This document shows, in pieces, positions 824-20,558 of a stretch of 20,558 nt of DNA. Both the position numbers and the translations under genes were made by a program. A model generated the notes under the pieces. That model was not told where the DNA came from. It worked only from the letters and a program-made list of their open reading frames with translations, and ran no database searches. This DNA is from Armatimonas sp. (lineage in GTDB: Bacteria > Armatimonadota > Armatimonadia > Armatimonadales > Armatimonadaceae). Location of the stretch: assembly GCF_031410135.1 (NCBI RefSeq), contig NZ_JANNYP010000607.1:1-20558 (forward strand), written 5' to 3'. The stretch's first letter is position 1. The number at the start of each line of letters is the position of its first letter.

Positions 824-2608
824 ATGAACACACTCTATCCTCTCACCTCTCTCGTCGCGCTGGTAGCGGCTCCTGCTCTGGCGCAGGCACAGACAGGTGC
901 TACGTTTTTCGGTCAGACGGAGGTGCATGTGGTGCATATTGCCCTCACCCAAGAGCAGTGGGACGGCATGAGCCCCACCCGTCCACAGGGCTTCGGGCCG
1001 ATGGACTTGCAGTTCCCTGAGGTCAAGTCTACGATCGCCGTCGATGGCAAAGAGTATGTCGTCGGGCTGCGCTTTAAGGGCAATTCAAGCTACATGAGCA
1101 GCTCCCGTGGGCTCAAGCGCCCCTTTAAGATTGACTTTAATCAGCACGTCAAGGGCCAAAGCCACGAAGGGATCACCAAGCTCAACCTCAATAACAACTT
1201 CTCGGACCGCACCCAGATTCGCGAGACCCTCGCCTACGAGATCTTCCGACGGATGGGTCTTCCCTCGCCGCGCACGACCATGGCAAAAGTGGGGATCACG
1301 CTAGGCGGGGAAGAAAAATCCCTGGGGCTCTACACCCTGGTGCAGCAAGTGGACTCCAGCTTTCTCAAAGAGCACTATGGCACGGGCGAGGGCATGCTCC
1401 TCAAGCCGGAGGGAGCCCGTGGGGGAATCACCTATCTGGGCGACGACTGGTCGCGCTACGAGACAGGCTACGACCCAAAGGGTAAACCAACCCCACAAGA
1501 GAAAACGCGTCTGATCGCCTTTGCCAAGCTCGTTCACCAGTCCGACGAGGCAACGTTCCAGAAAGAGATCGGCAATTTTCTGGACACCGAGGGCTTCGCG
1601 AAGTTTTTAGCCGCCACGGCGGTGACATCTAACGGCGACAATATGTTTGCGATGGGCCATAATTTTTATCTTTGGCTCAATCCCAAGACCAATAAATTTG
1701 TCTACCTGCCGTGGGACTTAAACATGGCCTTTGGGGGCTTCCCCATCGGCGACCCGATTCACCTATCGGTAAAGAAGCCCTACAACGGCGAGAGCAAGCT
1801 CACGGATCGTTTTCTGGCGATCCCCGAGTTCCGAGCGGCGTACAACAAGTCTTGTCGTGAGGGTGCCAAGATCATGACGGAGCTAGATGCCCTCCATGAC
1901 TCCACGGCAGCAGCAGCCAAGCCCATCATGGCCTTCGATCCTAAAGACTCTGGCGGAGGCTTCGGTCCAGGAGGCCCTGGTGGAGGAGGCCCCGGCGGGC
2001 CAGGCGGCGGTGGCCCCGAAGGTCAGGGTGGCCCGGGCGGGGGACGGCGTGGGGGCGGTGGGCCGGGTGGCCCCGGAGGGCCAGGCGGCATGGGTGGCAC
2101 CAACGACCTCAAGACCTTCTTTGCGCAGCGCTCTGCCTCTGTAATTGCACAGCTTGACGGCAAAGAAGAGGGCATTATCCCCCAAAGCGGCGGCCCCGGA
2201 GGGCCAGGCGGCCCGGGTGGCTTCGATCCCGCCCAGATGCTCGGAACAAGCTTCCTCCAGCTCACGGGGGCAGGTGAGGCTCCGACGCTCACGGCCTTCA
2301 ACGATGCCTGGAAGAAAGGCGCGGCATTCTGCGACAAGAATAAAGATGGCAAGCTGACCCAAGAAGAGCTAAACGCGGGCGTGAGCTCCGTCCTCGGCGG
2401 TGGCTTTGGGCCAGGGCAGTTTTTAGGGCCGCAGATTTGGAGCGCTCTGAAAGCCAAAGATAGCGTTCCGGTGGCGACCTTCACTGCAACGATGGCGCAG
2501 TGGGGCGTAAGCTGGGATAGCAACAAAGACGGGAAACTCACGGTTTCGGAGGTGGGGGCGGGCCTGATGCAGGTACTTCCCCCACCCAACGCCGGAGGAG
2601 GGTTCTAA
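824..2608 (+). CDS. Secreted CotH-family (spore-coat-protein-H-like atypical kinase) protein with Gly/Pro-rich low-complexity linker and two C-terminal EF-hand Ca-binding loops
   Basis: N-terminal signal peptide MNTLYPLTSLVALVAAPALAQAQ. Central region (FKIDFNQH...KLNLNNNFSDRTQIRETLAYEIFRRMGLPSPRTTMAKVGI...LGLYTLVQQVDSSFLKEHYG) matches my recollection of the CotH kinase-like domain. Gly/Pro-rich runs follow (GGPGGGGPGGPGGGG...). Two 12-residue loops, DKNKDGKLTQEE (nt 2333-2368) and DSNKDGKLTVSE (nt 2516-2551), fit the canonical EF-hand pattern D-x-N-x-D-G-x-[ILV]-x-x-x-E. Confidence 0.65.
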   Translation: MNTLYPLTSLVALVAAPALAQAQTGATFFGQTEVHVVHIALTQEQWDGMSPTRPQGFGPMDLQFPEVKSTIAVDGKEYVVGLRFKGNSSYMSSSRGLKRPFKIDFNQHVKGQSHEGITKLNLNNNFSDRTQIRETLAYEIFRRMGLPSPRTTMAKVGITLGGEEKSLGLYTLVQQVDSSFLKEHYGTGEGMLLKPEGARGGITYLGDDWSRYETGYDPKGKPTPQEKTRLIAFAKLVHQSDEATFQKEIGNFLDTEGFAKFLAATAVTSNGDNMFAMGHNFYLWLNPKTNKFVYLPWDLNMAFGGFPIGDPIHLSVKKPYNGESKLTDRFLAIPEFRAAYNKSCREGAKIMTELDALHDSTAAAAKPIMAFDPKDSGGGFGPGGPGGGGPGGPGGGGPEGQGGPGGGRRGGGGPGGPGGPGGMGGTNDLKTFFAQRSASVIAQLDGKEEGIIPQSGGPGGPGGPGGFDPAQMLGTSFLQLTGAGEAPTLTAFNDAWKKGAAFCDKNKDGKLTQEELNAGVSSVLGGGFGPGQFLGPQIWSALKAKDSVPVATFTATMAQWGVSWDSNKDGKLTVSEVGAGLMQVLPPPNAGGGF

Positions 2609-2610
2609 AA

Positions 2611-3273
2611 ATGAGCATCGAGGGCGAGATTGTCCGCGCCGGTTTTGAGCGCAAGTACCTGGTTCCTGAGAGCCTCGCGGAGAGCCTGCTCAGCGCCGTG
2701 CAAGCGATCCTCCCTCCCGATCCGTACGGGGGACGCTACTCGGTGGCAAGCCTCTATCTCGATACTCCTGACCTGGCTTCCTATCGCCGCGAGGTGCAGG
2801 GCAAGTGGCGGCTACGGCGCTATAGCACCACCGAGACGGTCTTTGCAGAGTTCAAGGCTAAACCGGAGCCAGGAAAAGTCCATAAGCGCCGCAGTGCACT
2901 CTCGTCAGATCAGCTCCCGGCGAGTCTCCCCGGCTGGTTTCAGAAAGCGATCCATAAACAAAGCCTCTCTCCCACACGCCTCGTCACCTACACCCGAGAT
3001 GCCTTTGTCGGGGAGCTGGGGGGCGAGGAAGTTCGCCTGACACTGGATCATGCCGTCCAAGCAAGCTCCCATCAGAGCCTCCACTTCCCCCCGTTTGACG
3101 GGGGCCAGGGGGTAGGATTCCCCCTCACCGAGGGGCGCATCCTAGAGATCAAGTACGAGTTCGCACTGCCCGCAGAGCTGGCAAAGCTCACCTCGGAGCT
3201 CGGCCTGCTCCCGGAGTCGTTCTCCAAGTACCGCACCGCGATAGAGAAAATCCCCCCGTCGGACGGGGGCTAG
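2611..3273 (+). CDS. VTC / CYTH-like (triphosphate-tunnel-metalloenzyme-related, polyphosphate-polymerase-type) domain protein
   Basis: Starts 3 nt after the CotH stop, so it is coupled to it. N-terminal FERKYLVP resembles the CYTH/VTC ExExK-type strand. VTC-domain genes are recurrent neighbours of cotH-family genes (recalled knowledge). Assignment by motif only. Confidence 0.45.
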   Translation: MSIEGEIVRAGFERKYLVPESLAESLLSAVQAILPPDPYGGRYSVASLYLDTPDLASYRREVQGKWRLRRYSTTETVFAEFKAKPEPGKVHKRRSALSSDQLPASLPGWFQKAIHKQSLSPTRLVTYTRDAFVGELGGEEVRLTLDHAVQASSHQSLHFPPFDGGQGVGFPLTEGRILEIKYEFALPAELAKLTSELGLLPESFSKYRTAIEKIPPSDGG

Positions 3274-13823: not shown

Positions 13824-14477
13824 ATGGACGAGATCACGGTTCTGCTCACCGACGATCACGCGATTGTGCGTCAGGGAGTTCGGGCGTTTCTGGAGACCCA
13901 GTCGGATATTAAAGTCGTGGGTGAGGCGGGCAGTGGCGAAGAGGCCATCCAGCTCTGTGAGGCCCTCGCCCCGGATATCGTGCTGATGGACCTACTCATG
14001 CCCGGAATGGGGGGAGTGGAAGCCACACGGCGGGTAAAGGCGATTAGCCCTCGCACCCGGGTGATTGTCCTAACCAGTTATCATGAAGATGAGCACGTGC
14101 TTCCCGCGATTCGTGCAGGGGCACTCTCCTACTTACTCAAAGACGTGGCGGCGGGTGAGATTGCCACGGCGATTCGCAAAGCAGCAGCGGGGGAAGTCAC
14201 CCTCTCTCCGGCGATTGCCGCGCAGATGATGAAAGCAGTCACGGGGGAACGTAAGTCACCCGAGGCCCCTGGCCCGGAGTCGCCGTTGACAGTCCGGGAG
14301 CGGGAAGTGATTCGTCTGATTGCTGATGGGCTCTCGAACACCGAGATCGCAGAGAGGCTGTTCCTCTCGGAGAAAACCGTCAAGAGCCACGTCAGCAATA
14401 TCCTCGCTAAGCTCCATGTCACAGACCGCACGCAGGCGGCGGTCTATGCATGGCGCGAAGGCATCATGACCCGCTAG
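13824..14477 (+). CDS. Response regulator, NarL/FixJ family (REC domain plus LuxR-type HTH)
   Basis: ATG immediately follows the kinase TAA. REC motifs LLTDDH, phospho-acceptor region IVLMDLLMPGM, KAISPRTRVIVLTS. C-terminal LuxR HTH LTVREREVIRLIADGLSNTEIAERLFLSEKTVKSHVSNILAKL. Confidence 0.9.
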   Translation: MDEITVLLTDDHAIVRQGVRAFLETQSDIKVVGEAGSGEEAIQLCEALAPDIVLMDLLMPGMGGVEATRRVKAISPRTRVIVLTSYHEDEHVLPAIRAGALSYLLKDVAAGEIATAIRKAAAGEVTLSPAIAAQMMKAVTGERKSPEAPGPESPLTVREREVIRLIADGLSNTEIAERLFLSEKTVKSHVSNILAKLHVTDRTQAAVYAWREGIMTR

Positions 14478-15226
14478 CGACCGAAGCCACCGAAGCCGCC
14501 CATTCCGCCTCCCATACCACCGCCCATACCGCCCATACCACCGCCCATACCACCCATCATACCGCCGCCACCCATGCCACCCATGCCGCCGCCCATGCCA
14601 CCCATGCCGCCGCCCATGCCACCCATGCCGCCGCCCATCATGCCGCCCATGCCGCCGCCCATGCCGCCCATGCCGCCACCCATGCCACCCATGCCGCCGC
14701 CCATGCCGCCCATGCCACCACCACCCTGCATAGCTCGACTGGAGAAGGAGACATTAATAATCCCTCCTAATATCTGGCTTAAGTCCATCGGATCAAGATA
14801 GGTGAGGCTAATGCGCTCGTAGGCCGCATTTGGCCGAATGATTTCATCGGGTCCTATCGGAGCAGGTGCTGAGTCCTGAGGATTAGGATTGATCGCACGA
14901 GGCTTGACAATCCAGACACCGTTTTCTTTGGTGTAGGTAAGAGGCACACTAGCTGCACGCATGATCAGCTTCAGTGCATTCTCAAAGGGCTGCTCTGTAA
15001 TCTTAAGCGTGACAAATCCCACAACATTATTGTCAATGATATAGTTATTAATGCCTGCTTGCTTGAACGCAGCCTCAATCGTAGAACGAATGGGCGAGTC
15101 TTGCAGGTCAAAAGTAACATTATTTAATTTTTCTTGTGCAAATGCGCTCATAGGAAGAACAATTGCAATAGCAGATAACACCGCCCCAGCGGCAAATTTC
15201 CCGGTAAAATTCACTTTTTTCCTCAT
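14474..15226 (-). CDS. Sec-secreted STN/secretin-N-like domain protein with ~90-residue C-terminal Gly-Met repeat tail, (GGGMGGM)n
   Basis: Signal peptide MRKKVNFTGKFAAGAVLSAIAIVLPMSAFA|QEK. NVTFDLQDSPIRSTIEAAFKQAGINNYIIDNN..VTLKITEQPFENALKLIMRAASVPLTYTKENGVWIV matches the secretin-N/STN short domain pattern (VxLDLxDxPLxxALxxLAxQxGLNxxIDPxVxGxVTLxLxNVPxxQALDLILRxNGLxYxxEGNIIxV, recalled). The C-terminal tail is only G and M (plus a final GFGGFGR). Its stop codon overlaps that of the convergent response regulator (CTAG). Confidence 0.7.
   Translation of the reverse strand: MRKKVNFTGKFAAGAVLSAIAIVLPMSAFAQEKLNNVTFDLQDSPIRSTIEAAFKQAGINNYIIDNNVVGFVTLKITEQPFENALKLIMRAASVPLTYTKENGVWIVKPRAINPNPQDSAPAPIGPDEIIRPNAAYERISLTYLDPMDLSQILGGIINVSFSSRAMQGGGGMGGMGGGMGGMGGGMGGMGGGMGGMMGGGMGGMGGGMGGMGGGMGGMGGGGMMGGMGGGMGGMGGGMGGGMGGFGGFGR
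14490..14740. repeat. Tandem 21-nt-period DNA repeat (unit approximately CCCATGCCACCCATGCCGCCG on the plus strand) encoding the Gly-Met tail
   Basis: Units read directly from sequence. Early copies use CCATACC, later copies CCATGCC. The period corresponds to the 7-aa GGGMGGM unit. Confidence 0.8.
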
Positions 15227-15329
15227 CTTCTAAATACGAACAGTTTACTACTCGTATTCTAAACAAATTGGACACGAGGAAAGTTCATTCCTTCAAATTA
15301 TTTTTATTTTTTTCTAAAAAACAAATCGT

Positions 15330-15860
15330 CTAAAGCGACGAAAGTACATTTAAAAGCACGGGTAGCTGAAGATACGGTAGCTCAGGCGAGGTGAGTATCC
15401 CTGAGTAGAGGGCCGGTGGCGTTCCAGGAGGCACTTGAAGAATCAACTGTACAGTTTGAATGGCATCGGGCGCTAGCTGAAAAACCGCTGAAGAGGGCAG
15501 AAGTTGCTCGGGTTCAATACGATTTCCCGCCGCGCTCAGCAGCGGCGTACTTCGCAGGATAAACGTCACCGGGTCGGCTTGGTCGTTGTGCAGACGAAAG
15601 GGCAAGGCAACGTGCTCCCCCGCACGAACAGGCAGAGCGGGCATGAGGCTGTGGCGTGCCAAGGTCGGCAAGGCTCCTCGTGCGACCTCGGTGTCTAAGA
15701 TGGAGGAAGCCACTTCCAAGAGATCTTGCGGAAGCTCGGGCGCTGCCGCAGGCTCGGTCGGCTCGATAGCGTCACTAGGCTCCAGAGGCACCAGCGTGCG
15801 GCTCCGGTAGGTAGCCAAAGGGGTACAAACGTCGAGGGGTTTTCGTCGGTAGGTCTGCAT
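15330..15860 (-). CDS. Hypothetical protein, last gene of the encapsulin-associated operon
   Basis: Its ATG (15860-15858) lies 1 nt after the polyprenyl synthase TAA (TAAGATG). No recognisable motifs. Pro/Leu-rich; C-terminal half is beta-like (HVALPFRLHNDQADPVTFILRSTPLL...AVFQLAPDAIQTVQLILQVPPGTPPALYSGIL). Confidence 0.45.
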   Translation of the reverse strand: MQTYRRKPLDVCTPLATYRSRTLVPLEPSDAIEPTEPAAAPELPQDLLEVASSILDTEVARGALPTLARHSLMPALPVRAGEHVALPFRLHNDQADPVTFILRSTPLLSAAGNRIEPEQLLPSSAVFQLAPDAIQTVQLILQVPPGTPPALYSGILTSPELPYLQLPVLLNVLSSL

Positions 15861-15861
15861 C

Positions 15862-16890
15862 TTAAGAGTTCCGTGAGATCATGTAGCCGATCAAGTCTGA
15901 GAGAAACGTGCGGTGCTCCGAGGGGCCAGCGTCGGCAAAGGCTTGCTCAAAGGCATCCAGGGTGGCCTGGACAAAGCGCTCCGAGACGGCCTGGGCATGT
16001 GTGATACTGCCGTAGTGGGTCATGCGCTCCAGAATCCACGCGACATCGTCGGCACTGCGCTGTGGGCGGGTCTGTGCCAGAAAGCCTTCAAGACGCTCCT
16101 GCTCACTGCGACTTGCGTGCTGAAGCAAGTGCACCAGCATCAGCGTGCGCTTCCCCTCCCAGAGGTCGCCACCGATCTCTTTGCCGTAGCTCTTGTCATC
16201 GCCCACTAAGTTGAGCACATCGTCTTGGATCTGAAACGCCACACCCATAAAGTAGCCAAAGCGATTGAAGACATTGAGGTCTAGCCGATCTTTGCGAGCG
16301 ATCAGCGCCCCGATGCGACACGGATGGATAAAGCTGTACCAGCAGGTCTTCTTGAGGATCATCTCCAGGTAGTCGGCCTCGGTGACCGTGATGTCGTTGT
16401 CGCGTATCCAGCCCAGCTCCAGTGCCTGGCCTTCCAGCGACTGCAAGAGAAGGTGCTCAAACTCCTCGATAATGCGCCAGGTCAGTGGTCCCCCCAGCGT
16501 CGGGAGATTCTCTCGCACCAGCTTGAGGCTGAGCATGTTGAGCGCATCGCCCGCGTTTACGGCCAGCGGCATCCCGTACTGTGCCATCATCGTGGGCTGG
16601 GTGCGCCGAAACTCGCTCCCGTCTTCCACATCGTCGTGGACGAGAAACGCATTGTGGAGCATCTCCAGCGCCACAGCGGACTTGAGTGCCTCTTCCTCAG
16701 AGCCACCAAATGCCCCGCAGGTCGCCAGGCAGAGTGCCGGGCGCAGGCCCTTTCCTCTCCGCGCTAGGTGTTCGGCCATCGGGCCATAGAGATAGCGCTG
16801 GGGCTCGCGTGTGGGCAGCGCCGCCAGCAGGCCCGCCTGGATCAGCTCTCCGTAGTGCGCAAGCCGCTGGCGTAGAAGCTCCGTGGTCAC
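15862..16890 (-). CDS. trans-Isoprenyl (polyprenyl) diphosphate synthase family protein
   Basis: First Asp-rich motif LVHDDVEDGSEFRRTQPT (DDxxD...RR) and second motif GVAFQIQDDVLNLVGD (DDxxN variant). About 340 aa, typical for the family. GTG start overlaps the upstream stop (GTGA). Confidence 0.8.
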   Translation of the reverse strand: MTTELLRQRLAHYGELIQAGLLAALPTREPQRYLYGPMAEHLARRGKGLRPALCLATCGAFGGSEEEALKSAVALEMLHNAFLVHDDVEDGSEFRRTQPTMMAQYGMPLAVNAGDALNMLSLKLVRENLPTLGGPLTWRIIEEFEHLLLQSLEGQALELGWIRDNDITVTEADYLEMILKKTCWYSFIHPCRIGALIARKDRLDLNVFNRFGYFMGVAFQIQDDVLNLVGDDKSYGKEIGGDLWEGKRTLMLVHLLQHASRSEQERLEGFLAQTRPQRSADDVAWILERMTHYGSITHAQAVSERFVQATLDAFEQAFADAGPSEHRTFLSDLIGYMISRNS

Positions 16891-18755
16891 GACAGGACAT
16901 CCTCAGGCATCAGGGGCAGGATATGCACGCGTCCGGTGCGGCTCTTGGGCGCTACGTTATTAAGACCAAGCTGGCTGAGATGAGCTAAAAGCTGCTGGCT
17001 CACGGCAGTAGGCGCTAGCGGGGCGGCTCCGGGTGTGCCTTGATTGAAGACCTGCACCGCGCTCTCGATCAGCGACATCGTGGCAAGCCCGAGGCGCACT
17101 TGGGAGTCGTCCCACGGCAGGCCCTGCTGGTAGCGCAGGCGGTCTAGGGCACGCCAGGGTTCAAACAGCTCCGGCTCATGAAGCTTCCAGAGCTGGCACG
17201 GTGTGGCGCTTACGCCCGAGGCGCTAAGAATTCCATTGACGGCACGACGGGCGGCTTCGTTAGCCCCCTCCATGGTCGCCAAGTCCGTGTAGGTCCGCAC
17301 GTAGTCGGAGGCGAGAAAGAGATTGGGAATCGCGGTCACTGCCTCGGGCCGCAGCCGCCAGGTATTGATCAGATTCACCAGAAGCGGCTCTTTGTTCTCC
17401 AGCACGCCGCTGGCATTGCGCTTGATATCAGGATCTAAGAACCAGCCGTGCAGATGGCGATCCTGAAGAATCTCTTGGCCGTTGATATTGATATTGATAC
17501 TGCGCTTGAGCTGCTCCCAGACCTCGGCCTTGATCTCCTCGCGCGTACACTGCTTGGCGGTCTTTCCATTGAAGCCGAGCGCCTCCCACTCGGAGATATC
17601 CACAGAGAGAATGCCTTGGATCGTGCCATCGCCATAGTGGCTCAAGTCAATCTCAGGCCAGAACTGTTTTTGCGACACGGACGTCAAGGCCCACGGCGAG
17701 TCAATATAGATCGTGTGGCCGTGTGTGAGCGGAGCATCTTTGGTAAGGTAGAGCTGGAGACCGTTCATCCAGTCCACACCGCCTTGGCTCAAGGGAAGGA
17801 GATTCCCCAGCGATGGATCGGCGTGAAGTAACTCGGGGGTAAGAAGCTGGGCCATGCGCTCGACAGGAACCGCGCAGATATAGTAGTCCCCGACGGCCTC
17901 AAACGTCCGCCCGTGCTGCGTGACCTGTGCACTGGTGATCTTGCCATCGGTGCAGCGAATCGCCTGAAGCTCGGACTCAAAGTGGTAGACCACGCCGCGC
18001 TGCGTCAGATACGCAAGCCAAGGGCCAATCCAGACCTCGTTGGTCGGGCCATTGAGAAGCCTATCGCTACTGGTACCGGGCTCCACCACATCAAAGAGGA
18101 GCTGTACTAAGATATCCCCGATGGTTTTTGTGCTCGCGAGGCGCGCTTTAGCCGCGACCAGCGAGCGCGTGATCCCAAAGCCTAAGAACTTCTGGTAGGC
18201 CACCGAGCGCGTCTCCGCTCCGATAAAGTCCCACCAGTCGAGCTTCTCGTACTCGTCGAAGCGCCGCTCCTGACAGGATGTGATAATCTGCCAGATCTTC
18301 GAGCCAAAGAACGTCAGCTCCTCGGGCGTTAATCCCAAGTCGTTGCCAAAGAGCAAGCTCAAGTCATCGAGAACCACCCGAATGTCTTCCAGCGAGCGCG
18401 GCGAGCGTGAGGGGAGCACAAACGAGTTTCTCTCAAAGCGGGCCATCTCAATGCGGGTCGTGTCTACCAAGTTATCTACCACGGAGCTACTCGCCCCGTA
18501 GGGGATGCGGCTCATCGTGTCGATAACATGCTTATAAAACCGAGGGAAGAAGCGGAAGCCGTGCTCACCGGGCAGGTCTTTTCGCATCCCGTCAGGCCCT
18601 GTCGTCGCAGAGCCCGGCACCGGGATGCTCCGGGCCTTGCCACCGGGAATGCTCTGGCGCTCGTAGACCTCCACGGCAAAGCCCCGCTCGATCAGCTCGT
18701 GCGCAGCGCTTAGCCCGGCGACTCCCCCGCCTAAAATGACGACTTTCTTCTTCAC
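16887..18755 (-). CDS. FAD-dependent oxidoreductase of the amine-oxidase / phytoene-desaturase (CrtI-like) superfamily, with ~110-aa C-terminal extension
   Basis: N-terminal dinucleotide-binding motif KKKVVILGGGVAGLSAAHELIERGFAVEVYERQSIPGGKARS. C-proximal FAD-binding motif LFLASDYVRTYTDLATMEGANEAARRAVNGIL, typical of flavin amine oxidase/CrtI enzymes. Another ~110 residues follow this motif. GTG start overlaps the encapsulin stop (GTGA). Confidence 0.75.
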   Translation of the reverse strand: MKKKVVILGGGVAGLSAAHELIERGFAVEVYERQSIPGGKARSIPVPGSATTGPDGMRKDLPGEHGFRFFPRFYKHVIDTMSRIPYGASSSVVDNLVDTTRIEMARFERNSFVLPSRSPRSLEDIRVVLDDLSLLFGNDLGLTPEELTFFGSKIWQIITSCQERRFDEYEKLDWWDFIGAETRSVAYQKFLGFGITRSLVAAKARLASTKTIGDILVQLLFDVVEPGTSSDRLLNGPTNEVWIGPWLAYLTQRGVVYHFESELQAIRCTDGKITSAQVTQHGRTFEAVGDYYICAVPVERMAQLLTPELLHADPSLGNLLPLSQGGVDWMNGLQLYLTKDAPLTHGHTIYIDSPWALTSVSQKQFWPEIDLSHYGDGTIQGILSVDISEWEALGFNGKTAKQCTREEIKAEVWEQLKRSINININGQEILQDRHLHGWFLDPDIKRNASGVLENKEPLLVNLINTWRLRPEAVTAIPNLFLASDYVRTYTDLATMEGANEAARRAVNGILSASGVSATPCQLWKLHEPELFEPWRALDRLRYQQGLPWDDSQVRLGLATMSLIESAVQVFNQGTPGAAPLAPTAVSQQLLAHLSQLGLNNVAPKSRTGRVHILPLMPEDVLS

Positions 18756-19687
18756 TTTTGCTTGGTGCTAGGGTCGGCCAGCTCAAAGGAGCAAATCGCT
18801 TCCGTTTCCTTAACTCGGTAGGTGAAGCGCTCGTAGACACGGAAGTGGTACTGGGCTTCGTCGGAGATATTGAGAAACTGAACCGTGGGCGGCGTGGCGA
18901 CGACGAGATCAATGGGATCGCCGCAGAGGGAGACCACCACACCACAGCGAGGCGGCAAGATCCCGGAGCGCTGGAGCGGCATCCCCAGCATCGGGGTGAT
19001 GCGATCACTGGGCAGCACCAGCGAGCCACGCTCGGGCGTAAAGGCCTCGACATAGGCCTGATCCCCCAGCACACAGGCAAACGGCCCGAGATGGCCATTT
19101 TGCTCCAACGCGGTGATCGCGGCCACGATGATGCGGACGATACTCTCCGAAAACGGGGGCTCCGCGACGGGTATCCGATAGCCTGTGGGTCGAAGCTTCA
19201 AGCCCTCCTGGAATAGCCCCTCTATCTTCTGTCCACTCGTGACAAGACACTGCTTGGGTACTAAAATATCGTTGAGCTCCTCACGGCTCGGGTTACGCCT
19301 AGGCAGCCCCCGAAAGGTAATCGCGTCCTCGGCTCGTGCCAGGATATTGGCCCCCCGTCGAAAGGCCAGCAAGGCATCCTCGATCCGCTCCTGCGCCATC
19401 TGCTGCTGCTTGAGATAGACATGTACCGTGAGCGAGCAGAGCGTCAAGGTCTCCACATCATCCACACGCAGGGGGGTACCCGCCTCGTCAAACTCCAGCA
19501 GGTTCTGACGCCGCACCACTTCCGCACTCTTTGCCAGTGGGCCATAACACGGAAGAAACGAGCCCGCCACGCTGGACTTAGTGACTTCTTCCTGAACCGT
19601 CTGATTGATCTGGTTCCACTGATCTTGCGACCACTCAATTTGCCGACTAGGACTCTCCATAGCTTTTACGCCTTTCTTTCTTACCAA
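18752..19687 (-). CDS. Encapsulin nanocompartment shell protein (HK97-fold, Family-1-like); probable start ATG at 19660 (302 aa)
   Basis: By-eye alignment to recalled Family 1 sequences. SQDQWNQINQTV fits T. maritima LTEKQWQEIDNRA. LEQNGHLGPFACVLGDQAY fits M. xanthus EncA LNEQGHFGPYAVVLSPRLY. CGVVVSLCGDPIDLVVA...YHFRVYERFTYRVKETEAICSFEL fits EncA SGVVVSTGRENMDLAVS...HPFRVLEALLLRIKHPDAICTL. Length is typical. The ORF-track start is a TTG (19687); an in-frame ATG lies at 19660. Confidence 0.8.
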   Translation of the reverse strand: MVRKKGVKAMESPSRQIEWSQDQWNQINQTVQEEVTKSSVAGSFLPCYGPLAKSAEVVRRQNLLEFDEAGTPLRVDDVETLTLCSLTVHVYLKQQQMAQERIEDALLAFRRGANILARAEDAITFRGLPRRNPSREELNDILVPKQCLVTSGQKIEGLFQEGLKLRPTGYRIPVAEPPFSESIVRIIVAAITALEQNGHLGPFACVLGDQAYVEAFTPERGSLVLPSDRITPMLGMPLQRSGILPPRCGVVVSLCGDPIDLVVATPPTVQFLNISDEAQYHFRVYERFTYRVKETEAICSFELADPSTKQK

Positions 19688-19702
19688 AGCGATTAGGAAG
19701 AA

Positions 19703-20558
19703 TTACCGAACCGCATAAACATCATACGAAATAACAAAATATTCTTTATAAACAACGCCTATTGCAATCGTAAAAAGCCTATTCATCCAAATATAGTCCC
19801 TATTCGATGTTAAAAACCGACAATTCAAACGAGCAGTCGGCTTTTCAGGCCAATTATTGTCTATAAAATTCTTAAATCCATTAATCCCTAATTCAAAAAC
19901 GCCTGTTGCCGTCATATAGATCAAAGCACCGTCATCTGTCTCAAGACAGGCATGTATATCAGGATCACCAATGCCGTCTCTGCGAATGGTCATCCAGTCT
20001 CCCCCGTGCTTTTTCACGACACCTCGTATTAAAGGCCCGGAAAATATACCTTCTTCCACAAACCAGTTCACTTTCAGGCCTTCCGGGGTATCACCAAAGA
20101 CTTCCAGGTTCTGTGTCAAATTTACGGTCAAGGAAAAAAGATAGTCCAGGTGAAAGGGAAAACGTGTCTGCGTAGGAGTCCGTAAAGTAAGCTCATTTTC
20201 TCTGGCTGTCGTCAGTTCTGATTTCATTTGAAACGACGATGGGAGTTGCTGATAGGTCGCAATGTCGGGCACCTGGCGACCGCCACAGTGAAAGACAGGT
20301 ACGTACTCCACAAGGCACTCTTGGCCGACATCGGGAAAGCTTGCCTGGTAGTACTGTGTGGCGCTGGCATAGTCAGTGCGCACTAAGACGGCGGGGATTG
20401 TCTGTGTCCGACCACTGTCAATACGACAGTGGACGACAACTCGGTTTCCCGGCTTGATCGGTGAGACGCCGACCGTGAGGGTCTGAGGCGACGGCAAAAA
20501 CTCACCATTCGCGGAGACCGGCGCGGGTGCATCGCTCGTGCCATACCAGAGGGTCAAG
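19703..20558 (-). CDS. DUF3237-like beta-barrel domain protein. The AT-rich DUF3237 unit probably starts at the internal ATG 20228 (175 aa); the GC-rich upstream 105 codons are of doubtful coding status and the ORF runs off the window.
   Basis: LTVNLTQNLEVFGDTPEGLKVNWFVEEGIFSGPLIRGVVKKHGGDWMTIRRDGIGDPDIHACLETDDGALIYMTATG...NRLFTIAIGVVYKEYFVISYDVYAV matches the recalled DUF3237 pattern (TPEG.R.i.pi.GG.f.GP.lrG.VlpGGaDW...rpDG...lDaRYtL.TDDGAlIyv...G...). Base composition switches sharply at about nt 20250, right at the in-frame ATG. The start at 20557 is only a TTG created by the window edge. Confidence 0.55.
   Translation of the reverse strand, partial: LTLWYGTSDAPAPVSANGEFLPSPQTLTVGVSPIKPGNRVVVHCRIDSGRTQTIPAVLVRTDYASATQYYQASFPDVGQECLVEYVPVFHCGGRQVPDIATYQQLPSSFQMKSELTTARENELTLRTPTQTRFPFHLDYLFSLTVNLTQNLEVFGDTPEGLKVNWFVEEGIFSGPLIRGVVKKHGGDWMTIRRDGIGDPDIHACLETDDGALIYMTATGVFELGINGFKNFIDNNWPEKPTARLNCRFLTSNRDYIWMNRLFTIAIGVVYKEYFVISYDVYAVR

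Follow-up and report, generated by a model that had tools for sequence, protein, structure and literature searches.

Encapsulins are the simplest known protein organelles, and Family 1 among them is regarded as an iron and oxidative-stress system that is loaded by way of one kind of short peptide. In its classical representatives, such as EncA with EncBCD of Myxococcus xanthus and the shell of T. maritima, a shell of the HK97 fold is paired with DyP, ferritin-like, IMEF, or hemerythrin cargo. Here we examine a 20,558-nucleotide (nt) stretch of DNA from Armatimonas sp. (the complete contig NZ_JANNYP010000607.1 of assembly GCF_031410135.1; the whole stretch is hereafter the window) in which a Family 1 shell gene stands in an operon with genes for a phytoene desaturase (PDS)-like flavoenzyme, a short-chain prenyl diphosphate synthase, and a DUF3237 enzyme that opens with a domain outside Pfam (the N-domain); this core set is joined here by a partly disordered, beta-sandwich-like protein of 176 amino acids (aa). 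The locus shares with classical Family 1 the HK97-fold shell with its N-terminal helix, as well as a candidate cargo with a flexible C-terminal linker that leads to a short conserved peptide. It differs in that its candidates are biosynthetic rather than peroxidases or iron proteins, that they are encoded downstream of the shell, that the peptide reads G[RK]V.I[ILV]P where classical cargo has LTVGSL-like sequences, that a folded N-terminal domain may be a second targeting device, and that the shell scores below the cut-off of the NCBIfam Family 1 model.

The association itself is on record. Giessen and Silver 2016 (doi 10.1101/085266) described a fourth Family 1 sequence cluster, “New”, located in “lipid/isoprenoid” gene clusters, with outer-loop insertions and no T3 motif, and reported particles of 35–37 nm assembled from three of its shells, taken from a Geodermatophilaceae strain, Methylocapsa acidiphila, and Acaryochloris marina, those of A. 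marina measuring 35 nm. Cargo, targeting signal, and function were not named there. Andreas and Giessen 2021 (PMC8346489) know terpene cyclases and polyprenyl transferases as cargo of Family 2 alone and count 90 “Minor” Family 1 operons without defined cargo. A literature search found no later papers on this encapsulin/isoprenoid pairing. The window shell belongs to the “New” clade, and the operon fits that description because of its Acaryochloris orthologues (53–54% identical, with outer-loop insertions and no GPxGxG motif), the P-loop (AAA_16) protein that accompanies the isoprenoid genes in the gene cluster, and the GPLAKS that replaces GPxGxG. An earlier note on this DNA had called the locus an undescribed cargo combination, which is too strong, since the pairing appears in the 2016 preprint (doi 10.1101/085266), where no cargo was assigned to it. 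The combination has thus been noticed already and is uncharacterised; the association is genuine and not unrecorded. To the 2016 description we add a candidate C-terminal peptide, a shell-linked N-domain, enzyme fusions, shell-free relatives, and Armatimonadota as a further host phylum.

The other described system to which the operon bears comparison is Family 2B, with its 2-methylisoborneol/geosmin synthase and polyprenyl transferase cargo. Both tie a shell genetically to isoprenoid enzymes that include a trans-prenyl diphosphate synthase (PMC8346489, PMC11550324), and both have cyclic-nucleotide signaling nearby, in the form of a cyclic nucleotide monophosphate (cNMP) domain in the 2B shell and of a cyclase-STAND gene beside the operons orthologous to ours. 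The window shell, however, carries neither a cNMP insertion nor a Family 2 N-arm, the operon encodes no terpene cyclase, its synthase has no counterpart of the long, disordered loading domain found at the N-terminus there, and the central partner here is a PDS-like flavoenzyme. If its partners are cargo, this operon would add a biosynthetic lipid/isoprenoid set to Family 1, parallel to the terpenoid systems of Family 2B but evolved around another type of shell.

Conservation and layout of the operon

The same genes accompany related shells far beyond this genome. In a survey limited to one genome per species, which yielded 32 loci (numbered here with the prefix L) and compared the window proteins by tblastn, all 20 loci that could be assessed, those with downstream sequence and a shell of at least 36% identity, have the flavoenzyme gene beside the shell gene, and the synthase gene is present in all 17 that reach far enough downstream. 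Both enzymes are conserved partners of the shell, and the pairing withstands the check named in the earlier note, by which homologous shells without these neighbors would have spoken against it. Most shell loci also encode the accessory protein, the DUF3237 protein, and a cyclase-STAND gene. The shared order, seen in GCA_025362935.1 (L001), a Chthonomonadaceae metagenome-assembled genome (MAG; L002, which is the same as L005), and Acaryochloris sp. CCMEE 5410, runs from a cyclase-AAA_16 protein (~1,150 aa) through DUF3237, shell, Amino_oxidase, and polyprenyl_synt to a hypothetical protein. In the window the cyclase-STAND regulator gene would lie past the contig end. Hosts fall in at least five phyla, namely Armatimonadota, Cyanobacteriota, Acidobacteriota, Gemmatimonadota, and Pseudomonadota, the last including Burkholderiales, Mesorhizobium, Granulosicoccaceae, Steroidobacteraceae, and the isolate Variovorax sp. 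HW608. Identity to the window proteins is 58–72% for the flavoenzyme, 54–73% for the synthase, and 36–58% for the shell, so the enzymes are more conserved than the shell that they accompany. The operon is widespread and probably horizontally spread, and what is conserved, far beyond chance, is gene content and order.

In the window the operon is laid out as follows, with all features on the minus strand.

19703..20557, minus: gene for the N-domain + DUF3237 protein, its 5′ end cut by the contig end (~8 codons missing)
about 20183–20557, minus: N-domain of that protein (~115 aa, putative beta-sandwich), within 19703..20557
about 19709–20152, minus: DUF3237 domain (residues 136–283; Pfam, 87.6 bits)
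18752..19660, minus: Family 1 encapsulin shell, 302 aa (PF04454, 65.6 bits; AlphaFold2 model; Foldseek)
19526–19543, minus: shell GPLAKS, replacing GPxGxG
16887..18755, minus: flavin adenine dinucleotide (FAD)-dependent oxidoreductase, PDS-like, COG3349-type, 622 aa (PF01593, 74 bits; AlphaFold2 model)
18714–18731, minus: flavoenzyme GxGxxG
17109–17123, minus: flavoenzyme GLPWD, end of the catalytic body
16890..17033, minus: flavoenzyme C-terminal tail, candidate cargo-loading or docking peptide (low model confidence plus conserved motif)
about 16941–17033, minus: predicted disordered linker of that tail
16914–16934, minus: flavoenzyme peptide GRVHILP, followed by 8 extra residues
15862..16890, minus: short-chain trans-prenyl diphosphate synthase, 342 aa (PF00348, 214 bits)
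16621–16635, minus: synthase first aspartate-rich motif (FARM), DDVED
16210–16224, minus: synthase second aspartate-rich motif (SARM), DDVLN
15330..15860, minus: accessory protein, 176 aa (orthologue alignment)
15834–15851, minus: accessory protein N-terminal peptide MxxYRRKPL
15675–15701, minus: accessory protein ILD(E/T)E..xG motif, in its disordered middle
15316..15341, minus: weak terminator-like hairpin with T-run at the operon end (consensus scan, a pattern match only)

The tight packing of four of these genes, which had first drawn attention to the locus, is present in the sequence in every particular: the gene coordinates, the 4-nt GTGA overlaps at 18752–18755 (shell/flavoenzyme) and 16887–16890 (flavoenzyme/synthase), and the single nucleotide between synthase and accessory gene (TAA-G-ATG at 15858–15864). 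Overlaps of stop and start codons are by themselves ordinary in operons, the orthologous operons have spacers of 35–350 nt, and the tight coupling is a local compaction specific to the Armatimonas sp. genome. The four genes were correctly placed, but the unit was drawn too short, as it left out the upstream gene for the DUF3237 protein with its N-domain, the partner that best tracks the shells. This gene lies on the same strand, 42 nt upstream of the shell start, is conserved alongside the shell in orthologous loci, and is part of the same operon, which makes a unit of five genes. The longest shell open reading frame (ORF) spans 18752–19687, from a TTG; a start at the ATG at 19660 is more likely, because the database protein, annotated as an encapsulin and 100% identical to the shell, has 302 aa and the orthologues align from that residue.

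A divergent Family 1 shell

Linocin_M18 (PF04454) is the only Pfam match of the shell, at 65.6 bits against a gathering score of 24.3, and the NCBIfam Family 1 equivalog NF041155 is matched with 83.1 bits, under its cut-off of 100; the shell belongs to a divergent subclade of Family 1. Its closest sequence in the PDB is EncA of Myxococcus xanthus (E 6e-13). The AlphaFold2 model, computed from an alignment of 32 clade members, has a predicted local distance difference test score (pLDDT) of 89.5, a predicted template-modeling score of 0.87, and an N-terminal helix at residues 12–29. The fold is of the HK97 type, with A- and P-domains and an E-loop. A Foldseek comparison with the PDB returned nothing but Family 1 shells among the top 50 matches (best E 1e-20); EncA came first, and the T=3/T=4-forming shells of Bacillus methanolicus and Quasibacillus thermotolerans were also in the lead. 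Neither the Pfam scan nor the model contains a cNMP-binding insertion or an extended Family 2 N-arm. With PF04454 above threshold, the N-terminal helix in place, and every best fold in Family 1, the by-eye placement of the shell in Family 1 and not Family 2 was right.

Variation within the clade is centered on residues ~118–169, the variable outer-loop region, and on the C-terminus, while the cores of the P- and A-domains are conserved and W10, Q14, and W15 of the N-terminal helix are invariant. The GPxGxG motif is absent. The particle is probably of the 30–40-nm T=3/T=4 class. In one Vicinamibacterales MAG (L017:8735-10861), two shell-like stretches, oriented divergently, lie upstream of the flavoenzyme gene, in a locus with many apparent frameshifts; the doubling could reflect either an additional shell gene or a fault of the assembly.

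A PDS-like flavoenzyme with a conserved C-terminal peptide

The flavoenzyme matches Amino_oxidase (PF01593) with 74 bits and falls under the cut-off of every NCBIfam equivalog that it resembles, namely HpnE (83 bits against 283), PDS (45 against 569), and the CrtI family (25 against 238); by these scores it belongs to no named equivalog, within a large family (more than 7,995 matches at E<1e-10). Its sequence matches in the PDB are limited to the Rossmann motif. The AlphaFold2 model (pLDDT 83.6) is disordered at residues 599–622 (pLDDT about 30), and its best fold match is rice PDS (5MOG; E 2e-24, template-modeling score 0.82 normalized to PDS, root-mean-square deviation 3.8 Å, 17% identity), with CrtD-type desaturases, oleate hydratases, and the amine and amino-acid oxidases well behind. 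The earlier description of the protein as a CrtI-superfamily FAD oxidoreductase needs adjusting, as the fold is nearer to plant-type PDS than to CrtI. Plant and cyanobacterial PDS thus offer the closest solved fold, with an FAD Rossmann domain and a substrate domain, and HpnE the best NCBIfam match, well below cut-off; the window enzyme differs from both in its low identity to PDS, in about 70–100 extra C-terminal residues, and in having no phytoene or squalene synthase as a partner.

Those extra residues have a regular architecture. Past the conserved GLPWD, the orthologues continue with 30–100 variable residues rich in P, A, S, and T and then with a conserved peptide at the extreme C-terminus, [R/G][S/R]-G-[R/K]-V-x-I-[I/L/V]-[P/S], which is found in 113 of the 120 best flavoenzyme homologues and lies 0–2 residues from the C-terminus in 110 of those 113. 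The window linker is the shortest seen among the orthologues. Shell, DUF3237 protein, synthase, and 176-aa protein all lack a peptide of the GRV.II type. Three homologues of 549 aa end directly after GLPWD without any tail; two of their loci have an AAA_16 gene and no shell, and the third gene lies beside one for a 151-aa DUF3237 protein without N-domain, with no shell on its 3.6-kilobase (kb) contig.

A metagenome scan seeded with the flavoenzyme returned 80 loci, which we classed by the C-terminus of the encoded protein.

Linker + motif, 21 loci: shell in 16, the other 5 without flanking sequence; synthase alongside in every locus with enough downstream sequence
Fused to the synthase (one ORF, 960–1003 aa), 12 loci: shell in 8 of 8 with upstream sequence; linker without motif; 176-aa-type gene not detected
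Short form, 36 loci: 0 shells, 0 synthases, 0 DUF3237 genes; 14 of the loci with at least 3 kb on both sides
Remaining, 11 loci: 7 cut by a contig end, 4 with a long tail without motif

Where at least 3 kb is available on both sides, a shell gene accompanies the linker and motif in 6 of 6 loci and the short form in 0 of 14 (exact p about 3e-5, for loci that are not phylogenetically independent). The peptide is absent from all 36 short-form enzymes, many of which end in an amphipathic or hydrophobic helix, and 6 of which have an AAA_16 neighbor. The membrane-type C-termini of these short free flavoenzymes suggest that the substrate is lipophilic and located at the membrane. Among the shell-free flavoenzymes, which are 49–66% identical to that of the window (L053, L055, L067, L080, L085, L089, L090, L110, L119; also L037 and L039), several directly follow an AAA_16 STAND gene without a cyclase domain. 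The shell-free enzymes suggest a membrane-bound ancestral form and a conserved link to the regulator.

The prenyl diphosphate synthase and its natural fusions

The synthase matches PF00348 with 214 bits, and DDVED and DDVLN are kept in all orthologues. Its best NCBIfam models are IdsA, geranylgeranyl diphosphate synthase, and the Family 2 cargo polyprenyl transferase, all under cut-off, the last (NF041169) with 194 bits against a cut-off of 450. Ala at position −5 and Phe at −4 before the FARM point to a product that is probably C15–C20. The orthologue alignment contains no terminal targeting extension, so the synthase, which had been put forward as a cargo partner, is a conserved neighbor of the shell whose status as cargo finds no support.

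That the two enzymes belong together is indicated by 12 loci (L062, L069, L071, L073, L079, L081–L084, L091, L094, L109) in which flavoenzyme and synthase form a single ORF without internal stop. As Rosetta-stone fusions these imply, from sequence, that flavoenzyme and synthase act together. The subclade has kept the shell and DUF3237 genes, and both the C-terminal peptide and the 176-aa-type gene are absent from it.

The DUF3237 enzyme and its N-domain

The DUF3237 domain (PF11578) is matched far above its cut-off of 24 bits, and orthologues of 289–296 aa adjoin the shell in L001, L003, L007, L008, L010, L018, and L038. Relatives with structures in the PDB are 4pux, 3c5o, and PhnH (6jjs). Characterized members are cofactor-less acid-base enzymes: PhnH acts on a prenyl alkene by hydroalkoxylation, and the decarboxylases PhcF and PhcG likewise work without a cofactor (PMC11969235; PMC9942872). 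In the acidobacterial loci L014, L015, and L023 the protein has an additional C-terminal truncated-hemoglobin domain (Bac_globin, E 1e-11), which suggests O2-linked chemistry.

The N-domain belongs to no Pfam family. A word-indexed homologue search with the domain alone gave no matches, and when its profile was compared with PDB sequences and Pfam, all that came up were CBM_56/Lmo2446-N-like hints below threshold. An exhaustive HMMER search of a library of 1.84 billion proteins recovered 251 cluster representatives, in which the domain nearly always occupies residues ~8–118 of proteins that range from 120 to 3,662 aa. In eight loci with divergent shells of 340–360 aa (24–30% identical to the window shell; L022, L024, L025, L027, L028, L029, L030, L033), the next gene opens with an N-domain (38–41% identity) and continues as a giant protein of 1,800–3,600 aa. 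In a Waterburya MAG (L025:2633-16732) this giant resembles TcA (ABC_toxin_N, TcA_TcB_BD), and the shell gene is preceded by one for a TcB-TcC-like fusion (SpvB, TcdB mid domains, RHS); L029 has, by sequence, a similar upstream giant. In L025 the divergent shell is thus encoded between TcB-TcC-like and TcA-like genes, a link between encapsulins and Tc toxins for which a literature search found no papers. Judged by its distribution, the N-domain is the common denominator of the shell neighbors and the only module shared with other shell-adjacent proteins. It could be a hitherto unrecognized folded module that docks proteins onto encapsulin-type shells, the DUF3237 enzyme here and the TcA-like giants on the divergent shells, a proposal that we make tentatively and think rather doubtful; if it were true, encapsulin partners, possibly including exterior decoration, would extend well beyond peptide-tagged luminal cargo.

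The accessory protein

The 176-aa protein has no Pfam or NCBIfam match. Its orthologues (233–295 aa, the window copy being the shortest seen) follow the synthase in most loci and share the MxxYRRKPL peptide at the N-terminus, an ILDEEMAxG-type motif within a disordered middle section, and a beta-rich C-terminal domain of ~100 aa, which is beta-sandwich-like. Homology of this domain with the N-domain was considered and rejected (hhalign probability 13%). In the pseudomonadotal loci L016, L018, L019, L035, and L038 the protein reaches 650–715 aa through an extra C-terminal domain of ~400 aa that is faintly ADC-like (E 0.009). L072, where the peptide is present, has a different beta-sandwich protein in another position in place of the 176-aa-type gene, and a further charged helical protein of 164–174 aa is encoded beside the shell in L038 and L073.

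Enclosure, docking, or decoration

The synteny, the family and fold assignments, and the correlation of the tail and the N-domain with the presence of a shell are all observed, and a mechanism that would fit them can be outlined. The flavoenzyme would be attached to the compartment through its C-terminal tail, made up of the flexible linker and the G[RK]V.I[ILV]P peptide, and the DUF3237 enzyme through its N-domain. The synthase, in complex with the flavoenzyme, would make an amphiphilic prenyl diphosphate from isopentenyl diphosphate and dimethylallyl diphosphate, which are small enough to pass the pores; the flavoenzyme would next desaturate or oxidize the prenyl chain, and the cofactor-less DUF3237 barrel could carry out an acid-base follow-up step. 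Given that the free flavoenzymes have a C-terminal amphipathic helix of membrane type, the shell appears to replace the membrane, and it might confine a lipophilic or reactive isoprenoid intermediate and possibly hydrogen peroxide. Taken as a whole, the reading that this is a horizontally spread “New”-clade operon that encloses or scaffolds isoprenoid desaturation or oxidation, with enzymes attached through a tail and an N-domain, seems to us slightly better than an even proposition.

Several observations weigh against it. The canonical Family 1 targeting peptide (LTVGSL or LxIGSLK type) is absent from every real ORF of the window, the flavoenzyme peptide does not resemble it, and the putative cargo gene lies 3′ of the shell gene, whereas upstream is usual. 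The window flavoenzyme extends 8 residues beyond GRVHILP, unlike 112 of the 113 motif-bearing homologues. No head-to-head condensing enzyme (SQS_PSY: phytoene or squalene synthase) is encoded in the window, L001, L003, or L038, and the chain-length call depends on general rules for the residues before the FARM, which we presume to apply. The metagenomic loci behind the tail correlation share ancestry to an extent that makes them non-independent. Because shell, synthase, tail, and N-domain always travel together, co-occurrence cannot tell what binds what, and the placement of the partners inside the shell is itself something that we infer.

Since the fusion loci keep the shell and lose the peptide, the peptide may dock the enzymes on each other and not load the shell, and its loss fits such enzyme–enzyme docking at least as well. 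On this account the peptide would be a docking signal for the synthase or the accessory protein, contact with the shell would be made by the N-domain or another accessory, and the enzyme complex would be a passenger. Loss of the peptide coincides exactly with the covalent fusion of the two enzymes, although the shell and N-domain-DUF3237 genes stay; the N-domain is the only module common to other shell-adjacent proteins, namely the TcA-like giants beside divergent shells; and the peptide departs from the Family 1 consensus. Yet no other protein of the operon carries the peptide, and the N-terminal helix, which builds the peptide-binding site in solved Family 1 shells, retains its W10, Q14, and W15 across the whole clade. 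Moreover, cargo proteins are classically recognized by a flexible linker that ends in a short conserved peptide at the extreme C-terminus and by a gene that adjoins that of a Family 1 shell (PMC8346489). On balance we regard docking as a serious contender that is nonetheless unlikely.

An arrangement with the enzymes outside is less probable still. Here two beta-sandwich modules, namely the N-domain of the DUF3237 protein and the C-terminal domain of the accessory protein, would decorate the outside of the shell at its variable surface loop, and the shell would act as a scaffold or as a store for the hydrophobic isoprenoid product. Ig-like decoration proteins on HK97-type capsids provide a model for this, and the shell clade is marked by large variable outer-loop insertions; a role in binding is suggested by the weak resemblance of the N-domain to CBM modules, and this domain also heads proteins of 1,800–3,600 aa that are implausibly large as cargo. 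Decorated encapsulins are, however, without known precedent, and the disordered flavoenzyme tail resembles luminal cargo tags. That the co-location is incidental, or that the shell is the capsid gene of a prophage, is contradicted by the comparative data and has next to no probability: the synteny is kept across five phyla, phage morphogenesis genes (terminase, portal, protease) are found neither in the window nor in L001, L003, or L038, and the best folds are all encapsulins.

If enclosure or scaffolding of the pathway is real, the distinct C-terminal peptide and the folded N-terminal domain would be loading signals usable in the engineering of ~35-nm nanoreactors. The shell-free and probably membrane-bound relatives of the flavoenzyme offer a natural comparison for asking why a hydrophobic reaction should be enclosed, and the operon occurs in the cultivable Acaryochloris marina MBIC11017 (NC_009925.1, L008) and Variovorax sp. 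HW608 (LT607803.1, L038), in which these questions are directly testable.

The remainder of the window

A Pfam and profile scan of the rest of the window found no isoprenoid or phage genes; among housekeeping and regulatory functions unrelated to the operon, it encodes GH10, CotH, VTC, ABC transporter, HEAT, APH, VIT, rhomboid, and DUF58 proteins and a two-component system. Just downstream of the operon, at 14474–15226 on the minus strand, lies the gene for a protein of 250 aa whose N-terminal region is secretin-N/PilQ-like and whose long (GGM)n tail is rich in Gly and Met, and the His/Ala/Thr-rich ORF at 14450–14770 on the plus strand is the antisense shadow of this gene. In L001 the operon is followed by genes for a PAS/GGDEF/HD protein, a 257-aa protein without family match, and a secretin, and the downstream neighborhoods of the two genomes may be partly syntenic. 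The G+C content is 0.48–0.51 at 19500–20500, a dip that spans most of the DUF3237 gene, and at 14500–15500, compared with 0.58–0.62 in other parts of the operon and window. Far from the operon and unrelated to it, 824–3273 on the plus strand holds adjoining genes for a CotH kinase-like protein with an EF-hand and for a VTC-domain protein.

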